64,000 nucleotides of DNA from assembly GCF_003991155.1 (NCBI RefSeq), contig NZ_CP031293.1. One strand, given 5' to 3'. The notes under the pieces are model-generated. The model had not been told where the DNA came from, did not search any database, and saw nothing but the letters and a program-made list of their open reading frames with translations. Positions 5,863 through 57,949 of the stretch are shown here, piece after piece (the stretch's first letter is position 1; every line of letters starts with the position of its first letter). The position numbers and the translations under genes were made by a program. The DNA is from Escherichia coli (GTDB lineage: Bacteria > Pseudomonadota > Gammaproteobacteria > Enterobacterales > Enterobacteriaceae).

Positions 5863-6654
5863 ATGAAATCCACTCGTCCTGTTGCCGTGATTACCGGAGC
5901 CGCTCGTGGTATTGGAAAGGGCTGTGCGCTGGAGCTTGCGCGTGGCGGATTTAATCTGCTGATTAATGATCGTCCGGATGCGGATAGCGTAGAAAAATTA
6001 CATGCCACACAACAAGAATGTCTGGCGGAAGGCGTGGAAGTGATTTGCTTCCCTGCTGATGTGGGCGATCTCTCCCTTCATGAAGAGATGCTCGACGCGG
6101 CGCAAAACCAGTGGGGACGTCTGGACTGTCTACTCAACAACGCAGGCATTTCAGTGAAAAAACGCGGTGACCTCCTCGACCTCGAACCAGACAGCTTCGA
6201 TCAAAACATTGCCATTAACACCCGCGCGCCGTTCTTCCTTGCTCAGGCATTCAGTAAGCGCTTACTGGCACAGCCGAAACCGGAAGCAGAACTGCCGCAC
6301 CGCTCGATTATTTTTGTCAGTTCCATCAACGCCATCATGCTGGCGATGAATCGCGGCGAATATACCATTGCCAAAACTGCCGTCTCCGCCGCAGCTCGTC
6401 TGTTTGCCGCTCGCCTTTGCAATGAACAAATTGGCGTTTATGAAGTGCGCCCTGGTCTCATCAAAACTGATATGACTATTCCGGCAACGGCTTATTACGA
6501 CGAACTGATTGCCAAAGGTCTGGTGCCGTGGGGACGTTGGGGTTATCCGGCTGATATTGCTTCCACTGTCCGCGCGATGGCGGAAGGTAAACTGATTTAC
6601 ACCTGCGGTCAGGCGGTTGCCATCGACGGCGGCTTAAGTATGCCGCGCTTCTGA
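5863..6654 (+). CDS. Short-chain dehydrogenase/reductase (SDR) family oxidoreductase
   Basis: 263-aa ORF with N-terminal TGAARGIGKG Rossmann motif and SDR-like catalytic region; first gene of the operon. Confidence 0.85.
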   Translation: MKSTRPVAVITGAARGIGKGCALELARGGFNLLINDRPDADSVEKLHATQQECLAEGVEVICFPADVGDLSLHEEMLDAAQNQWGRLDCLLNNAGISVKKRGDLLDLEPDSFDQNIAINTRAPFFLAQAFSKRLLAQPKPEAELPHRSIIFVSSINAIMLAMNRGEYTIAKTAVSAAARLFAARLCNEQIGVYEVRPGLIKTDMTIPATAYYDELIAKGLVPWGRWGYPADIASTVRAMAEGKLIYTCGQAVAIDGGLSMPRF

Positions 6655-50997: not shown

Positions 50998-51966
50998 TTG
51001 TTAAATTCATTTAAACTTTCGCTACAGTACATTCTGCCGAAACTATGGCTTACTCGCCTGGCGGGTTGGGGCGCAAGCAAGCGGGCAGGATGGCTGACAA
51101 AACTGGTTATCGATCTGTTCGTTAAATACTACAAGGTCGACATGAAAGAGGCGCAAAAGCCGGATACCGCCAGCTACCGCACCTTTAACGAATTCTTTGT
51201 CCGTCCGCTGCGTGACGAAGTACGCCCAATCGATACCGATCCGAATGTACTGGTTATGCCTGCCGATGGCGTTATCAGCCAGTTGGGTAAAATCGAAGAA
51301 GATAAAATCCTGCAAGCCAAAGGCCACAACTACAGCCTCGAAGCCCTGCTGGCAGGCAACTATCTGATGGCGGACCTGTTCCGCAACGGTACGTTTGTGA
51401 CCACTTACCTCTCCCCGCGTGACTACCACCGCGTACACATGCCGTGCAACGGTATTCTGCGTGAGATGATCTACGTGCCGGGCGATCTCTTTTCCGTTAA
51501 CCATCTCACCGCTCAGAACGTGCCGAATCTGTTTGCCCGTAACGAACGCGTGATCTGCCTGTTCGATACCGAATTTGGCCCAATGGCGCAGATTCTGGTC
51601 GGGGCGACGATTGTAGGCAGCATTGAGACGGTCTGGGCGGGCACCATTACGCCGCCGCGCGAAGGTATCATCAAGCGCTGGACCTGGCCTGCCGGGGAAA
51701 ACGACGGTTCTGTGGCACTGCTGAAAGGCCAGGAAATGGGTCGCTTTAAACTCGGTTCCACCGTTATCAACCTGTTTGCACCGGGTAAAGTGAATCTGGT
51801 TGAGCAACTGGAAAGCCTGTCTGTCACGAAAATTGGCCAGCCGCTGGCAGTATCTACCGAAACCTTTGTTACGCCAGACGCTGAACCCGCCCCGCTTCCT
51901 GCTGAAGAGATCGAAGCAGAACACGACGCCAGCCCATTGGTTGACGACAAAAAAGACCAGGTCTAA
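50998..51966 (+). CDS. psd: Phosphatidylserine decarboxylase proenzyme
   Basis: 322-aa [39 protein letters not shown] with LGST self-cleavage motif near the C-terminus. Confidence 0.93.
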
Positions 51967-51987
51967 TCCATCAAAGGAAACGCTGAC

Positions 51988-54900
51988 GTGCGCCTGATTA
52001 TCACTTTTCTGATGGCCTGGTGCCTCAGTTGGGGGGCGTACGCCGCGACGGCCCCCGATAGCAAACAAATCTCACAAGAACTGGAGCAGGCAAAAGCGGC
52101 GAAACCCGCGCAACCGGAAGTCGTAGAGGCGCTCCAGTCTGCCTTAAATGCGCTTGAGGAACGAAAAGGTTCCCTTGAGCGCATCAAGCAATATCAAGAA
52201 GTCATTGATAATTATCCGAAACTCTCCGCTACTCTGCGCGCGCAATTAAACAACATGCGTGACGAGCCGCGCAGCGTGTCACCGGGAATGTCTACCGACG
52301 CGCTGAATCAGGAAATTCTCCAGGTCAGCAGCCAGTTGCTGGATAAAAGCCGTCAGGCCCAGCAAGAGCAGGAACGCGCCCGCGAGATTGCCGATTCGCT
52401 GAATCAACTGCCGCAACAGCAAACCGATGCCCGCCGTCAGTTAAATGAAATCGAGCGCCGCCTGGGGACGCTTACCGGCAATTCCCCGCTCAATCAGGCA
52501 CAAAATTTCGCGTTGCAGTCTGACTCCGCACGCCTGAAAGCGCTCGTCGATGAACTGGAACTGGCGCAGCTGTCCGCCAATAACCGCCAGGAATTAGCGC
52601 GTTTACGCTCAGAGCTGGCGGAAAAAGAGAGCCAGCAACTGGATGCATATTTGCAGGCCTTACGTAATCAGTTGAACAGCCAACGTCAGCTTGAGGCGGA
52701 GCGGGCGCTGGAAAGTACCGAATTACTGGCAGAAAACAGTGCCGATTTGCCGAAAGATATCGTCGCGCAATTCAAAATTAACCGCGAACTATCGGCAGCG
52801 CTGAATCAACAGGCGCAGCGGATGGATCTCGTTGCCTCGCAACAGCGTCAGGCTGCCAGCCAGACGTTACAGGTCCGGCAGGCGTTGAATACGCTGCGTG
52901 AACAGTCGCAATGGCTGGGCTCGTCCAACCTGCTCGGCGAAGCGTTGCGGGCGCAGGTGGCACGGCTGCCGGAAATGCCAAAACCACAACAACTTGATAC
53001 CGAAATGGCGCAGTTGCGTGTGCAACGGTTACGTTATGAGGATCTGCTTAATAAACAGCCGCAGCTAAGGCAAATTCATCAGGCCGACGGTCAGCCGCTG
53101 ACCGCCGAGCAAAACCGTATTCTGGAAGCACAGCTACGCACTCAGCGTGAGTTGCTGAACTCATTGTTGCAGGGTGGAGACACGCTACTGCTGGAACTGA
53201 CCAAGCTGAAAGTCTCCAACGGGCAACTGGAGGATGCGCTGAAAGAGGTGAATGAAGCGACGCACCGCTATCTGTTCTGGACCTCTGACGTGCGCCCAAT
53301 GACCATCGCCTGGCCGCTGGAAATCGCCCAGGATCTGCGTCGTCTCATTTCGCTGGACACCTTCAGTCAGTTGGGCAAAGCCAGTGTGATGATGCTGACC
53401 AGTAAAGAGACAATTTTACCGCTGTTTGGCGCGTTGATTCTGGTCGGTTGCAGTATTTACTCACGCCGCTATTTCACCCGTTTTCTTGAACGTTCGGCGG
53501 CGAAAGTCGGCAAAGTGACTCAGGATCACTTCTGGCTGACGTTACGCACTCTTTTCTGGTCGATTCTCGTCGCGTCACCGCTACCGGTGCTGTGGATGAC
53601 GCTGGGTTACGGCTTGCGCGAGGCGTGGCCTTATCCGCTGGCGGTAGCGATTGGTGATGGCGTAACAGCCACCGTACCGCTGCTATGGGTAGTGATGATT
53701 TGCGCTACCTTTGCCCGCCCGAACGGCTTATTTATCGCTCATTTTGGCTGGCCGCGCGAACGGGTTTCCCGTGGGATGCGCTACTACCTGATGAGCATTG
53801 GGCTTATCGTGCCGCTGATTATGGCGCTGATGATGTTCGATAATCTCGACGACCGCGAGTTTTCCGGTTCGCTGGGACGGCTTTGCTTTATCCTCATTTG
53901 CGGTGCGCTGGCGGTGGTCACTCTCAGTCTGAAAAAGGCCGGGATCCCGCTGTATCTCAACAAAGAAGGCAGCGGTGACAACATTACCAACCATATGCTG
54001 TGGAACATGATGATTGGCGCACCGCTGGTTGCCATTCTGGCGTCGGCGGTGGGTTATCTGGCAACGGCGCAGGCACTGTTAGCGAGGCTTGAAACCTCGG
54101 TTGCCATCTGGTTCCTGCTACTAGTGGTTTATCACGTTATCCGCCGCTGGATGCTGATCCAGCGCCGCAGGCTGGCGTTTGACCGGGCGAAGCATCGCCG
54201 GGCAGAGATGTTAGCGCAACGTGCGCGTGGCGAAGAGGAAGCGCATCATCACAGTAGCCCGGAAGGGGCAATTGAAGTAGATGAAAGCGAAGTCGATCTC
54301 GATGCCATCAGTGCGCAATCCTTGCGGCTGGTGCGCTCAATTTTGATGTTGATCGCCCTGCTTTCGGTCATTGTGCTGTGGTCAGAAATCCATTCCGCTT
54401 TCGGCTTCCTCGAAAATATTTCGCTGTGGGATGTCACCTCCACGGTACAGGGCGTAGAAAGTCTGGAGCCGATTACCCTCGGTGCGGTGCTGATTGCCAT
54501 TCTGGTGTTTATCATCACCACGCAGCTGGTGCGCAACCTGCCCGCGCTGCTGGAACTGGCGATTTTGCAGCACCTGGATTTAACGCCGGGTACGGGCTAC
54601 GCCATCACCACCATCACCAAATATCTGCTGATGCTGATTGGCGGGCTGGTCGGCTTCTCAATGATTGGTATTGAGTGGTCGAAATTGCAGTGGCTGGTCG
54701 CCGCGCTCGGTGTTGGTCTCGGTTTTGGTTTGCAGGAAATTTTCGCCAACTTTATCTCTGGCCTGATCATCCTGTTCGAAAAACCGATTCGCATTGGCGA
54801 TACGGTAACGATCCGCGATCTTACTGGTAGCGTGACGAAAATTAACACCCGCGCCACCACCATCAGCGACTGGGACCGTAAAGAGATAATCGTGCCGAAC

Positions 54901-55311
54901 AAGGCGTTTATTACCGAGCAGTTTATCAACTGGTCGCTCTCTGACTCGGTCACGCGCGTGGTGTTGACGATTCCGGCCCCTGCCGATGCCAACAGTGAAG
55001 AAGTGACGGAAATCCTGCTCACCGCAGCGCGTCGCTGCTCGCTGGTGATCGACAACCCGGCACCGGAAGTCTTCCTGGTGGATCTGCAACAGGGGATTCA
55101 GATTTTCGAGCTGCGTATTTACGCCGCTGAGATGGGTCACCGTATGCCGCTACGCCATGAGATCCACCAGCTAATTCTGGCAGGCTTCCATGCCCACGGT
55201 ATCGATATGCCATTCCCGCCCTTCCAGATGCGTCTGGAAAGCCTCAACGGTAAACAAACGGGGAGAACGCTGACGTCTGCGGGCAAAGGTCGTCAGGCGG
55301 GAAGTTTATAA
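51988..55311 (+). CDS. mscM: Miniconductance mechanosensitive channel MscM (YjeP; MscS family with large periplasmic coiled-coil domain)
   Basis: 1107-aa ORF; signal peptide, Gln-rich coiled-coil N-terminal domain, multiple TM segments and C-terminal MscS domain. Confidence 0.9.
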   Translation: MRLIITFLMAWCLSWGAYAATAPDSKQISQELEQAKAAKPAQPEVVEALQSALNALEERKGSLERIKQYQEVIDNYPKLSATLRAQLNNMRDEPRSVSPGMSTDALNQEILQVSSQLLDKSRQAQQEQERAREIADSLNQLPQQQTDARRQLNEIERRLGTLTGNSPLNQAQNFALQSDSARLKALVDELELAQLSANNRQELARLRSELAEKESQQLDAYLQALRNQLNSQRQLEAERALESTELLAENSADLPKDIVAQFKINRELSAALNQQAQRMDLVASQQRQAASQTLQVRQALNTLREQSQWLGSSNLLGEALRAQVARLPEMPKPQQLDTEMAQLRVQRLRYEDLLNKQPQLRQIHQADGQPLTAEQNRILEAQLRTQRELLNSLLQGGDTLLLELTKLKVSNGQLEDALKEVNEATHRYLFWTSDVRPMTIAWPLEIAQDLRRLISLDTFSQLGKASVMMLTSKETILPLFGALILVGCSIYSRRYFTRFLERSAAKVGKVTQDHFWLTLRTLFWSILVASPLPVLWMTLGYGLREAWPYPLAVAIGDGVTATVPLLWVVMICATFARPNGLFIAHFGWPRERVSRGMRYYLMSIGLIVPLIMALMMFDNLDDREFSGSLGRLCFILICGALAVVTLSLKKAGIPLYLNKEGSGDNITNHMLWNMMIGAPLVAILASAVGYLATAQALLARLETSVAIWFLLLVVYHVIRRWMLIQRRRLAFDRAKHRRAEMLAQRARGEEEAHHHSSPEGAIEVDESEVDLDAISAQSLRLVRSILMLIALLSVIVLWSEIHSAFGFLENISLWDVTSTVQGVESLEPITLGAVLIAILVFIITTQLVRNLPALLELAILQHLDLTPGTGYAITTITKYLLMLIGGLVGFSMIGIEWSKLQWLVAALGVGLGFGLQEIFANFISGLIILFEKPIRIGDTVTIRDLTGSVTKINTRATTISDWDRKEIIVPNKAFITEQFINWSLSDSVTRVVLTIPAPADANSEEVTEILLTAARRCSLVIDNPAPEVFLVDLQQGIQIFELRIYAAEMGHRMPLRHEIHQLILAGFHAHGIDMPFPPFQMRLESLNGKQTGRTLTSAGKGRQAGSL

Positions 55312-55660
55312 GGTTTTGTAGCCGGATAGTCTCATCCGGCTCACCAACAAAACAGATAGCGCAGGGAAAACTGCCACAGCCAATAGAAGAGCATTATTGA
55401 AATAACAAAATATTGCCAAAGAGAGTGCTGTTTCTTCCAAATAACAGCATAAATATATGGGATGAATAATGGTAAGGTCATTATAATACCAACTGGGCGA
55501 ATATCATCATTCTCAAGATATGTCATAACATCACAAACATTATTAATTCCTCTACCGTCGATAAACCACTCTTTGTCTTGAACAGATAAAAAATCTATCC
55601 AAAATATGCTTATAACAAACCAGATAAGGTTAAGGGAAAATGATTTCCAGTTCATCATAG
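55240..55660. repeat. Segmental duplication copy A (mscM 3' end + terminator hairpin + yjeO)
   Basis: DNA-level similarity to 57440..57852 read directly (e.g. acggtaaacaaacggggagaacgctgacgtctgcggg versus acggtaagcaaacggggtgaacgctgacctctgcggc; shared aaggttttgtagc.ggat.gtctcatccggc hairpin). Boundaries approximate. Confidence 0.6.
55341..55658 (-). CDS. yjeO: Small inner membrane protein, YjeN/YjeO paralog family (copy adjacent to mscM)
   Basis: 105-aa ORF with 2-3 TM segments; paralogous to the ORF at 57538..57852 (conserved DKEW, YLENDD, IMTLPLF, YWLWQF, LRY.FC blocks); start overlaps the upstream 237-aa gene (ATGA). yjeO versus yjeN assignment is from K-12 gene order (memory). Confidence 0.7.
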   Translation of the reverse strand: MMNWKSFSLNLIWFVISIFWIDFLSVQDKEWFIDGRGINNVCDVMTYLENDDIRPVGIIMTLPLFIPYIYAVIWKKQHSLWQYFVISIMLFYWLWQFSLRYLFCW

Positions 55661-56368
55661 ATTATTCATTATTTTCATTAAAGCAGTTTTCTTTTCAAGA
55701 ATACGTCGACCATATTCACTGTATTCTCTCTGATGGGATCCTTTCGGTGCTGCAATGGAGTCTATAATATCTTGTTTATTTCTTTCAATACCACGGTTGT
55801 ATCGGGAGCCGACTACAATTAACTGCTCATCCGTTAAATTAGTGGTGTCACCTATTTCCGGATAGTCATAATGTATAAGGTCTCGTAAATGAAATGCTAC
55901 CACTCTAATGTTGAAGCGGTCATTTAGTAAGCACTGGGAAAGTTGGAACTGCTCAAAGGATGACAAAAGATCTGGATGTATCCCTATAGTCCTGGCTGCA
56001 ACGCCTAACTGTATTGCGACAGAACCGACTGAAGTAGAGTTTGAGTAGGTATTGCCTCCTCTCTTTGAAACGGCCTCTAGGATTATTTTTAATTGCAGCA
56101 CCCCCACTGGTTTAAATCTTTCTGGCATTCCGCCAACCTCAGCAGCCGCAACGCCCGCAAGTAATAATAACGGGATTTGCGCCTCTTTGGCATATTGCCA
56201 CAACATATCACGGTGATAAATCAACCATGATGTTTTATATAACCATAAGTGTGCAGTCCCCGTGCTGAATGTCCAATTAGTCGGAAGAAAACGCCATCGA
56301 AAATAATCAATGCCATTCCATTTAGGAAAGCCTAATTCATCAACTTCGCAAAAAATAAGATTATTCAT
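55655..56368 (-). CDS. Hypothetical protein, 237 aa, tentative lysozyme-like (GH23/SLT-like) motifs; no signal peptide
   Basis: Intact ORF with AT-rich composition; ordered motifs AAAEVGG ... GSVAIQLG ... NIRVVAFHL ... VGSRYNRG resemble the E-S / G-L-M-Q / A-Y-N-x-G blocks of lytic transglycosylases (manual inspection only); translationally coupled to yjeO. Confidence 0.55.
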   Translation of the reverse strand: MNNLIFCEVDELGFPKWNGIDYFRWRFLPTNWTFSTGTAHLWLYKTSWLIYHRDMLWQYAKEAQIPLLLLAGVAAAEVGGMPERFKPVGVLQLKIILEAVSKRGGNTYSNSTSVGSVAIQLGVAARTIGIHPDLLSSFEQFQLSQCLLNDRFNIRVVAFHLRDLIHYDYPEIGDTTNLTDEQLIVVGSRYNRGIERNKQDIIDSIAAPKGSHQREYSEYGRRILEKKTALMKIMNNL

Positions 56369-56510
56369 TTAAAGTCCCTTATTAAAATCATTCCCAGAAT
56401 GAAGAATAGTACTATCATCAGAAAAACTGATTTGTGATGGGACAGACAAAAAATATAAAAAAGGGTTCGACTTAAGATAATCAAGATAAAACATATATAC
56501 CCAATAAACC

Positions 56511-56939
56511 TCAAGATGCGGGTGTGAGCACCTGAAAGTGATCGTTAATTCGGGATGTCAGAGAGTCCGCTATATCCGGCAGCGTCTGGTTAAAAAAGAC
56601 AGAAAAACGGGATACATTATATTCATGAATGGTTTTATATTCGCAGATTAGCGGTGACGTCAGTGCTTTCAGATTCAGCGCCCCCATGATATTCAGGCGT
56701 GTGCGGCAGCCTGTTGTTTTTACTGCTTTTTTCTGGCCTTTACGTATCCAGCCATAGCTGATTTTAGTGGCCTGAGTCGGATGGACTCCATCAATAAAAA
56801 GAACCGGTTCATCACCCACAGTTATTTTCAGTTCCTCATAATATTCAATGAATTGCCTTTGTTTCTCTTCACTGAATTTATGGGGGACGCCTGACGGTTT
56901 TTTGTAGGTGAAACCATTACGATGCAGCCACTTATTCAT
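56511..56939 (-). pseudogene. IS630-family transposase fragment (C-terminal part)
   Basis: 142-aa ORF MNKWLHRNGFTYKKPSGVPHKFSEEKQRQFIEYYEEL, separated by a frameshift or gap from the N-terminal fragment. Confidence 0.6.
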
Positions 56940-57031
56940 CCCCGGAATGCTGAAAATGATGTTCCATGTCCGGGTGATAAACGCAATAACATCGCGGGTA
57001 TGGTGAAATAAATTATCGGATAACTGGCTGA

Positions 57032-57328
57032 TTAAAAGGCCGTTTGTTCAGCACTGAGTTTGCTGTCTGAGCCGCCGTTTTCGGGCTTCAGTTTTCCTTT
57101 ATTCAGGAATTCGCTGATATGGTGATCAATCGTTGTCTGATGCAAGCGTAAAGCCTGAGCAATCATGGCAGAACTCCAGCCTTCGGAAACCAGAAGAATG
57201 GCTTTAATACGATCTCTGACTCGCCCGTCACGACTGGAATCATGAAGGCGTTCAAGTTCAGCTTTTTGTTGCTCAGTAATGAATATTTTCATGTTGGACA
57301 GCATGATCTTCTGTTGCTGAAAAATCAA
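57032..57328 (-). pseudogene. IS630-family transposase fragment (N-terminal HTH part)
   Basis: 98-aa ORF with HTH region; no contiguous reading frame with the downstream fragment. Confidence 0.6.
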
Positions 57329-57439
57329 GCATCTTCAATGATCACGGGTATATAAGGTGAATATTTATTGTTTTTAATATAAAAATCGCTTGCCCAACTT
57401 ACAGAGTGACTGCAAGCTGGATAATATACTCGTCATACT

Positions 57440-57852
57440 TCAGAACGGTAAGCAAACGGGGTGAACGCTGACCTCTGCGGCTAAAGCGCGCCAGGACGGC
57501 GGTATATAAGGTTTTGTAGCAGGATGGTCTCATCCGGCTACAAACAAAACTGATAGCGCAGAAAAAACTGCCACAGCCAGTAGCCGAAAATCACAAGCGC
57601 GGTGGCATACATAAACCAGCCGCGTTTTTTTCGCCACAAAGCGAACCAGAGAAAAGGGAAAAAGAGCGGTAACGTCATTATCACACCGACATCGCGGGTA
57701 TCATCATTTTCCAGATACTCCAGCACATGGCAGATATTTTTAACCCCACCTTCATCAATCATCCACTCTTTGTCCAGCGTGGAAGTGATGACTATCTAGG
57801 GGATCGCTACAACAAACCAGATGCAGCATAAGACAAACGTGCGCGCACTCAT
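57440..57852. repeat. Segmental duplication copy B (fossil of mscM 3' end + hairpin + yjeN)
   Basis: See copy A; copy B carries about 60 bp homologous to the last codons of mscM although no mscM gene is adjacent. Boundaries approximate. Confidence 0.6.
57538..57852 (-). pseudogene. yjeN: YjeN/YjeO-family small membrane protein with in-frame TAG at codon 19 (possible pseudogene or 74-aa N-truncated product)
   Basis: Reading from ATG at 57852 gives MSARTFVLCCIWFVVAIP-stop(TAG, 57796..57798)-IVITSTLDKEWMIDEGG...; the stop aligns with a Trp in the paralog at 55341..55658; ORF track reports only the 74-aa downstream frame 57538..57762. Confidence 0.5.
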
Positions 57853-57949
57853 AAGATAACCCGTAGTTTAATTTCGCTATAGCGCATACGAAATCCCACT
57901 AATTCCCTGTCATTGCGCCCTATCGTCAGGCAGACGATAGGGCATCGGG

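Follow-up and report, generated by a model that had tools for sequence, protein, structure and literature searches.

Background

ISEc40 is an IS element of the IS630 family (Tc1/mariner superfamily) that, in the literature searched, is listed only in mobilome tables. Its intact form, as seen in full-length copies, is 1097 bp long with TA on each side, and an intact relative of the copy described below (98% DNA identity) codes for a transposase of 341 aa with the full HTH plus DDE_3 architecture (DDE_3 at residues 164-307). MITE-like derivatives of IS elements are non-autonomous and internally deleted. For the gene pair that lies next to the element in the present locus, the closest described systems are the peptidoglycan glycoside-hydrolase pairs of the T6SS (Tge/Tgi; Tse3-Tsi3 of Pseudomonas aeruginosa), of which the immunity protein is periplasmic and soluble or a lipoprotein.

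In the window (the whole stretch of 64,000 nucleotides of Escherichia coli DNA that was analysed), the element on the minus strand at 56498-57350 resembles ISEc40 in nucleotide sequence (98% identity), in its ends, in its TA flanks and in the layout of HTH and DDE_3, and differs from it in length (853, not 1097 bp), in a frameshift at codon 86, in the loss of codons 231-311 and in having no functional transposase. As in the MITE-like derivatives, the deletion affects internal coding sequence and spares both terminal repeats; unlike these, the element gives no indication of having been amplified or moved, there being one copy per genome at one locus in 5,426 genomes. We consider it very probable that 56498-57350 is a fossil copy of ISEc40, which was inserted at a TA in the spacer that precedes a conserved gene pair, suffered two internal lesions and is now a passive passenger of an islet. 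The IS is a known element and an ordinary dead copy that is already annotated as a pseudogene.

Results and discussion

Identity and limits of the element

The name ISEc40 was taken from RefSeq product names: window 56494-57354 is about 98% identical to elements named "IS630-like element ISEc40 family transposase". The exact ends were taken from four aligned insertions, namely the window copy and three full-length copies at unrelated chromosomal sites (L003, L004 and L005; L004 has the intact 341-aa transposase). Compared with ISEc40 copies having the intact 341-aa transposase, the window element showed a DNA identity of 98.1% (16 mismatches in 853). The assignment to the IS630 family in the earlier note, made from the sequence alone, was thus borne out, well beyond what chance would give, by this identity of about 98% and by matches to HTH_29, HTH_33, DDE_3 and NCBIfam transpos_IS630. 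The element and its limits are as follows.

56498-57350, minus strand: defective ISEc40 (IS630 family) copy of 853 bp (alignment with L004, L003 and L005)
57326-57350, minus strand: left terminal inverted repeat (TACCCGTGATCATTGAAGATG...), identical to full-length copies
56498-56522, plus strand: right terminal inverted repeat (TACCCAATAAACCTCAAGATG...), intact (alignment with full-length copies)
57351-57352, no strand: TA beside the left (transposase 5') end, half of a putative target-site duplication (alignment)
56496-56497, no strand: TA beside the right (transposase 3') end, completing the putative duplication (alignment)

In the alignment, conservation began and stopped at the same bases in all four insertions (TA/TACCCGTG...TTG(G/A)GTA/TA, with the slashes at the limits), so that the pattern TA/TACCC...GGGTA/TA was found at four independent sites. 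Both termini are present in the window (TACCCGTG... at 57350 and ...TTGGGTA at 56498) and match the full-length copies at 97-98%; the left and right ends, compared as reverse complements, match at 15 of 25 positions and are therefore imperfect repeats. The alignment proposed in the earlier note, performed here on ISEc40 copies, located the terminal repeats, the TA flanks, a frameshift and a deletion; the truncation at the 3' side that the note had supposed was absent, as both termini, the TA flanks, the natural stop codon and the right inverted repeat are all retained and the loss is internal.

TA stands on both sides of the element in the window and at the three other independent insertion sites. 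The TA pair in the window could be pre-existing sequence, since the spacer is AT-rich and the corresponding Citrobacter spacer is only about 64% identical there. An islet without the IS (an empty site) was not found in E. coli, all 44 carriers among the 5,426 complete genomes having the element.

Note that one of the aligned copies (L003 1-4104, strain K56-43-un), which is full-length but frameshifted, lies inside a T6SS PAAR/VgrG cluster beside an ISAs1 fragment; its position in this cluster is probably a coincidence.

Lesions of the transposase gene

The transposase had been described as split into a 98-aa and a 142-aa fragment with about 90 bp between them, and this holds: the 98-aa ORF (57032-57328, minus strand) and the 142-aa ORF (56511-56939, minus strand) are 92 bp apart. 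In Pfam scans the two fragments matched HTH_29 (5e-11), HTH_33 (1e-10) and DDE_3 (8e-8), the 98-aa ORF giving the winged-helix/HTH matches and the 142-aa ORF matching HTH_33 and also DDE_3, the latter over its first half (profile positions 1-72 of 146). NCBIfam transpos_IS630 matched both ORFs (1.7e-19 and 5e-8), below the cut-off for full-length proteins, as is expected for fragments. The reading frames were then assigned from the intact copy.

57032-57292, minus strand: N-terminal transposase fragment (HTH), 86 codons followed by a premature stop (start placed at IS position 59 by comparison with the intact copy; Pfam HTH_29)
57034-57037, no strand: frameshift site, four A/T where intact copies have five (reference position 314, codon 86; alignment)
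56511-57031, minus strand: remainder of the transposase in the shifted frame, free of stops, ending at the natural stop codon (frame 0 translation; Pfam HTH_33 and DDE_3)
56603-56604, no strand: junction of a 243-bp in-frame deletion (reference positions 749-991, codons 231-311; alignment)

The 98-aa ORF begins at a TTG within the left end of the element, and the true start is the ATG at 57292; likewise, the 142-aa ORF is that part of the shifted-frame remainder which follows its first ATG (56939). The 92-bp interval between the ORFs is transposase coding sequence in the shifted frame, free of stops and 5' of this ATG, and nothing was lost there. There are exactly two differences in length from the intact copy: the loss of one T from a run of five, by which the frame is shifted at codon 86, and the 243-bp internal deletion. 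Both ends are complete and the damage is internal. The catalytic DD35E triad was tentatively placed at D168, D250 and E285 of the intact protein from the motifs FIDG, ILDGAG and PIERMW, following the Tc1/IS630 motif, and the deletion takes out D250 and E285 of the triad so placed. Owing to the frameshift and the deletion, the window copy has no full-length transposase with a complete catalytic triad, and the element is defective, as had been proposed. Programmed frameshifting was rejected as a cause of the split, because the intact copies have one continuous ORF of 341 aa.

Distribution of the decayed copy among E. coli genomes

The islet locus was present in 44 of 5,426 complete E. coli genomes, all of which carry the IS with both lesions, so that the decayed state read from the window is common to 44/44 carriers; in the three other genomes that were compared base by base, the element had 853 bp, TA flanks and 0, 1 and 8 differences. 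An 80-mer across the deletion junction, searched against the 5,426 complete genomes, matched in full in exactly 44 of them, once each and always at this locus, and the 243-bp-deleted form was not found at another site in this search. The element had also been called immobile, and the occurrence of the junction at one and the same place in each of the 44 genomes agrees with this.

The splitting of the transposase might be an error of sequencing or assembly in an element that is really intact, and one of the lesions does lie in a homopolymer run, a typical site of such errors; however, the same 1-bp loss and the same 243-bp deletion occur in 44 complete genomes that were independently sequenced (several countries and hosts), and we regard the probability of an error as negligible. 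Since all 44 carriers have both lesions and the junction occurs nowhere else, the element is a real, immobile fossil. In identical genomes RefSeq already labels it as a pseudogene ("IS630 family transposase, frameshifted").

Other copies of ISEc40 in the carriers were counted with a 2.6-kb query; the 40-base halves of the junction were unreliable for this use, as SNPs break the 28-base word. In most carriers, a single place matched the whole 2.6-kb query, and most carriers are therefore without another ISEc40 copy that could supply the transposase. Immobility is here an observation across 5,426 genomes rather than a proven property: with its intact ends, the element could in principle be mobilised given an ISEc40 transposase.

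Layout of the islet

The order of features around the element is mscM (to 55311, plus strand), a DUF2645 gene, the 237-aa gene (hereafter orf237), a 127-bp spacer, the IS, a 91-bp spacer, a remnant of mscM, a second yjeO, a remnant of yjeN, and yjeM.

55246-55341, plus strand: left copy of a 96-bp direct repeat, the true mscM 3' end with its terminator (84% identity to the right copy)
55341-55658, minus strand: YjeO-family (DUF2645) membrane protein, the partner of orf237 (Pfam DUF2645, 4.8e-29; 53% aa identity to K-12 YjeO)
55655-56368, minus strand: orf237, predicted to be lysozyme- or lytic-transglycosylase-like, without a signal peptide, candidate T6SS effector (alignment, AlphaFold model, Foldseek, neighbourhoods)
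56369-56495, minus strand: spacer reaching from the start of orf237 to the TA beside the IS, in origin the proximal half of the yjeM-orf237 spacer (collinearity with Citrobacter L010 extends down to position 5914)
57353-57443, minus strand: 91 bp beyond the IS, distal half of the yjeM-orf237 spacer, with a decayed hairpin like the yjeM terminator (aligns with the Citrobacter spacer beside the yjeM stop codon)
57444-57539, plus strand: right copy of the 96-bp direct repeat, an mscM 3'-end remnant without the mscM body, right edge of the islet (84% identity to the left copy)
57538-57852, minus strand: second, K-12-type yjeO with TAG at codon 19 (85% aa identity; sequence comparison)
57849-57893, minus strand: remnant of the real yjeN, of which 273 bp are deleted and the last 45 bp kept (sequence comparison)

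The earlier note placed the IS between yjeO and yjeN. This assignment has to be corrected, for both neighbours belong to the YjeO family (DUF2645), the ORF that had been labelled yjeN is really the truncated second yjeO, and of the real yjeN only the last 45 bp are left. By its stop codon the second yjeO is reduced to an ORF of 74 aa (57538-57762), with the first hydrophobic segment gone. The region differs among strains: the second, K-12-type yjeO is intact in VCSW7, and in GF3-3 yjeN is kept and yjeO is frameshifted. The possibility that yjeN is a remnant of orf237 was rejected, as no similarity was found between orf237 and K-12 YjeN; K-12 YjeN matched no Pfam family.

Nor does the IS mark the insertion point, as had been thought: the right junction of the islet is at 57443/57444, 91 bp beyond the element. 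The islet has about 2.2 kb, consists of the yjeO-like gene, orf237, the spacer and the IS, and is bounded by the 96-bp imperfect direct repeat. Bracketing of an islet by a repeat in this manner is typical of a homology-assisted or illegitimate join and not of transposition, and recombination between the 96-bp copies would delete the islet and restore a K-12-type mscM-yjeO junction. To judge from the sequences compared, the mscM-yjeM interval behaves as a hypervariable spot.

The yjeO/yjeN alleles (57538-57893, compared with L002, L006 and L007) were 88-90% identical between E. coli lineages, and the adjacent yjeM was about 98% identical. Among other complete E. coli genomes, no match above 90% to the yjeO allele of the window was found.

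The IS itself matters little, since both the element and its decayed state were already known and RefSeq flags the latter. The corrected anatomy is of use for annotation, namely that the ends are intact and the lesions internal, that the "yjeN" is a second yjeO, and that the islet boundary is a duplicated mscM 3' end.

Origin of the gene pair and the role of the IS

The 237-aa gene had been taken as an orphan. This view was not upheld, as orf237 has 110 clusters of homologues across Enterobacterales and in some Betaproteobacteria. The pair of orf236/237 and the DUF2645 gene was found without an IS at the mscM-yjeM/epmA position in Citrobacter sp. Cf136, Cronobacter, Enterobacter and Kosakonia, and 14 further loci of the 57 species-representative loci have the pair at the mscM position without an IS; in total, the IS-free pair stands at the same position in at least 18 loci of other Enterobacteriaceae. 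The orf236 of Citrobacter sp. Cf136 has a protein identity of 89% to orf237. Window 51904-56458 is collinear with mscM, the DUF2645 gene and orf236 of Citrobacter together with 87 bp of the spacer upstream of orf236, and the 91 bp beyond the IS align with the rest of this Citrobacter yjeM-orf236 spacer, up to the yjeM terminator hairpin. Because the pair is IS-free at the same locus elsewhere and the spacer is collinear on both sides, the IS is best read as a plain insertion into the spacer of a module that was already there. The DNA identity of the module to Citrobacter L010 is 87-88%, versus 78-83% for the adjacent mscM.

The earlier note had suggested that the IS delivered the 237-aa gene or lost its 3' end in the event that did so. 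It is true that the islet holding the IS is strain-specific, that the IS is found 129 bp upstream of orf237, and that all 44 E. coli genomes with orf237 have it. Against this, the 3' end of the IS, its stop codon and its TA flank are intact, there is a single copy of the IS, the edge of the islet is the mscM 3'-end repeat 91 bp away from the IS, and the gene pair occurs without the IS at the same locus in the other Enterobacteriaceae mentioned above. To our knowledge, IS630-family elements carry no passenger genes, which also counts against delivery by the IS. We judge delivery, in either of these forms, to be very improbable, and a simple insertion into the spacer is preferred.

The islet was 99-100% identical among three E. 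coli backgrounds, of which the flanking mscM and yjeM differed by 2-3%. This difference between islet and flanks suggests that homologous recombination carried the islet from one E. coli lineage to another when its IS had already decayed. The closer identity of the module than of mscM to Citrobacter also hints that the islet may have been acquired by E. coli from a different enterobacterial lineage and not by vertical inheritance.

The comparisons establish the anatomy of the locus, the lesions that the carriers have in common and, in other genera, an ancestral arrangement that lacks the IS; the order of events that we infer is as follows. By ordinary transposition to a TA target, ISEc40 would have entered the spacer that precedes the module of orf237 and the DUF2645 gene. 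This copy would then have lost one T of the T5 run, giving the frameshift at codon 86, and would also have lost 243 bp in frame (codons 231-311), including the putative second and third acidic residues of the DD35E triad. The decayed copy would now ride passively in the islet of about 2.2 kb, beside a K-12-type yjeO and with yjeN deleted.

Possible promoter activity of the IS remnant

It had further been suggested that the remaining IS sequence supplies promoter activity for the genes downstream. The remnant would in this case be co-opted: it would supply or modulate the transcription of orf237 and the yjeO-like gene, whether through a promoter directed outward or because transcripts from the transposase promoter read through, and would for this reason be kept in all carriers. 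The orientation of the IS is the same as that of both genes, a scan for terminator-like sites gave none on the minus strand from the IS to orf237, and all 44 carriers have kept the element. However, a consensus scan found no sigma-70-like promoter on the minus strand in the 3' part or end of the IS or in the spacer, and the total number of sites, 11, was not clearly above the expectation from shuffled sequences (7.4 +/- 2.5). Moreover, the IS has diverged more quickly than the genes beside it: the window and GF3-3 differ at 8 of the 853 positions of the IS versus 4 of 1028 in the two genes, which fits neutral decay better than co-option. A single recent common origin of the islet explains the retention equally well. 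Co-option is considered unlikely, though less so than delivery of the gene by the IS; the scan for promoters and terminators in itself speaks neither for nor against a promoter in the IS.

The orf237/DUF2645 pair

The start of the DUF2645 gene overlaps the stop codon of orf237 (ATGA), and in 56 of 57 species loci the orf237 homologue is directly followed by a DUF2645 gene with the same orientation. In 21 of the 57, an orphan hcp was found within about 600 bp of the homologue; the genera with this linkage are Xenorhabdus, Photorhabdus, Pectobacterium, Brenneria, Yersinia, Serratia, Rahnella and Samsonia, and also Dickeya. The linkage with hcp is thus a property of the orf237 family and is not seen at the E. 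coli locus itself.

An alignment of 20 sequences of the orf237 family contained an invariant Glu (E77 in AEVGG), S113/G115...Q120 and R189-Y-N-R-G193, which we take to resemble the E-S, GLMQ and AYNxG motifs of family-1 lytic transglycosylases. Pfam and NCBIfam scans assigned orf237 to no family, a comparison of its sequence profile with solved structures gave no significant match, and no hydrophobic N-terminus was found. The AlphaFold (AF2) model was confident, with a mean pLDDT of 86.7, and the top 30 Foldseek matches of this model in the PDB were all lytic transglycosylases (MltE, MltC), g-type (goose-type) lysozymes or Tse3, with modest scores (E = 0.02-0.8, TM 0.4-0.5). In the DUF2645 partner, two or more hydrophobic segments were above the threshold of the scan.

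The pair can be compared with the Tge/Tgi and Tse3-Tsi3 pairs. It resembles them in the predicted fold type of orf237, with the muramidase Tse3 among the top structural matches; in the invariant Glu, the SLT-like S/G..Q and YNRG motifs and the apparent lack of a signal peptide; and in the small gene directly downstream (56/57 loci) and the adjacent hcp (21/57). It differs from them in that orf237 has no detectable sequence similarity to solved structures or to Pfam and NCBIfam families, in that the partner is a polytopic membrane protein (DUF2645) and not a periplasmic soluble or lipoprotein immunity protein, and in that the pair stands at mscM without hcp in E. coli and other Enterobacteriaceae. 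A structural-bioinformatics paper of 2024 on T6SS effectors concerned a different, SleB-like family; no mention of DUF2645 was found in the literature searched, and the literature on yjeO and yjeN held nothing informative on function.

We hold it to be evenly balanced whether orf237 and DUF2645 proteins constitute an undescribed group of Hcp-associated T6SS effectors that degrade the cell wall, with a membrane-embedded immunity protein. If so, the yjeO of K-12 would be an orphan immunity gene left at the hypervariable mscM-yjeM hotspot; the IS would stay an ordinary one. The pairing of orf237 with DUF2645, together with the linkage to hcp in about one-third of the species, offers a testable function for DUF2645 and for yjeO, a K-12 gene without a known role.

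Secondary insertions into the islet were observed in some carriers: an IS1 splits orf237 in ECOD1 (L001 3356-4846), and an IS3-family element is present in SX4 and SX48.
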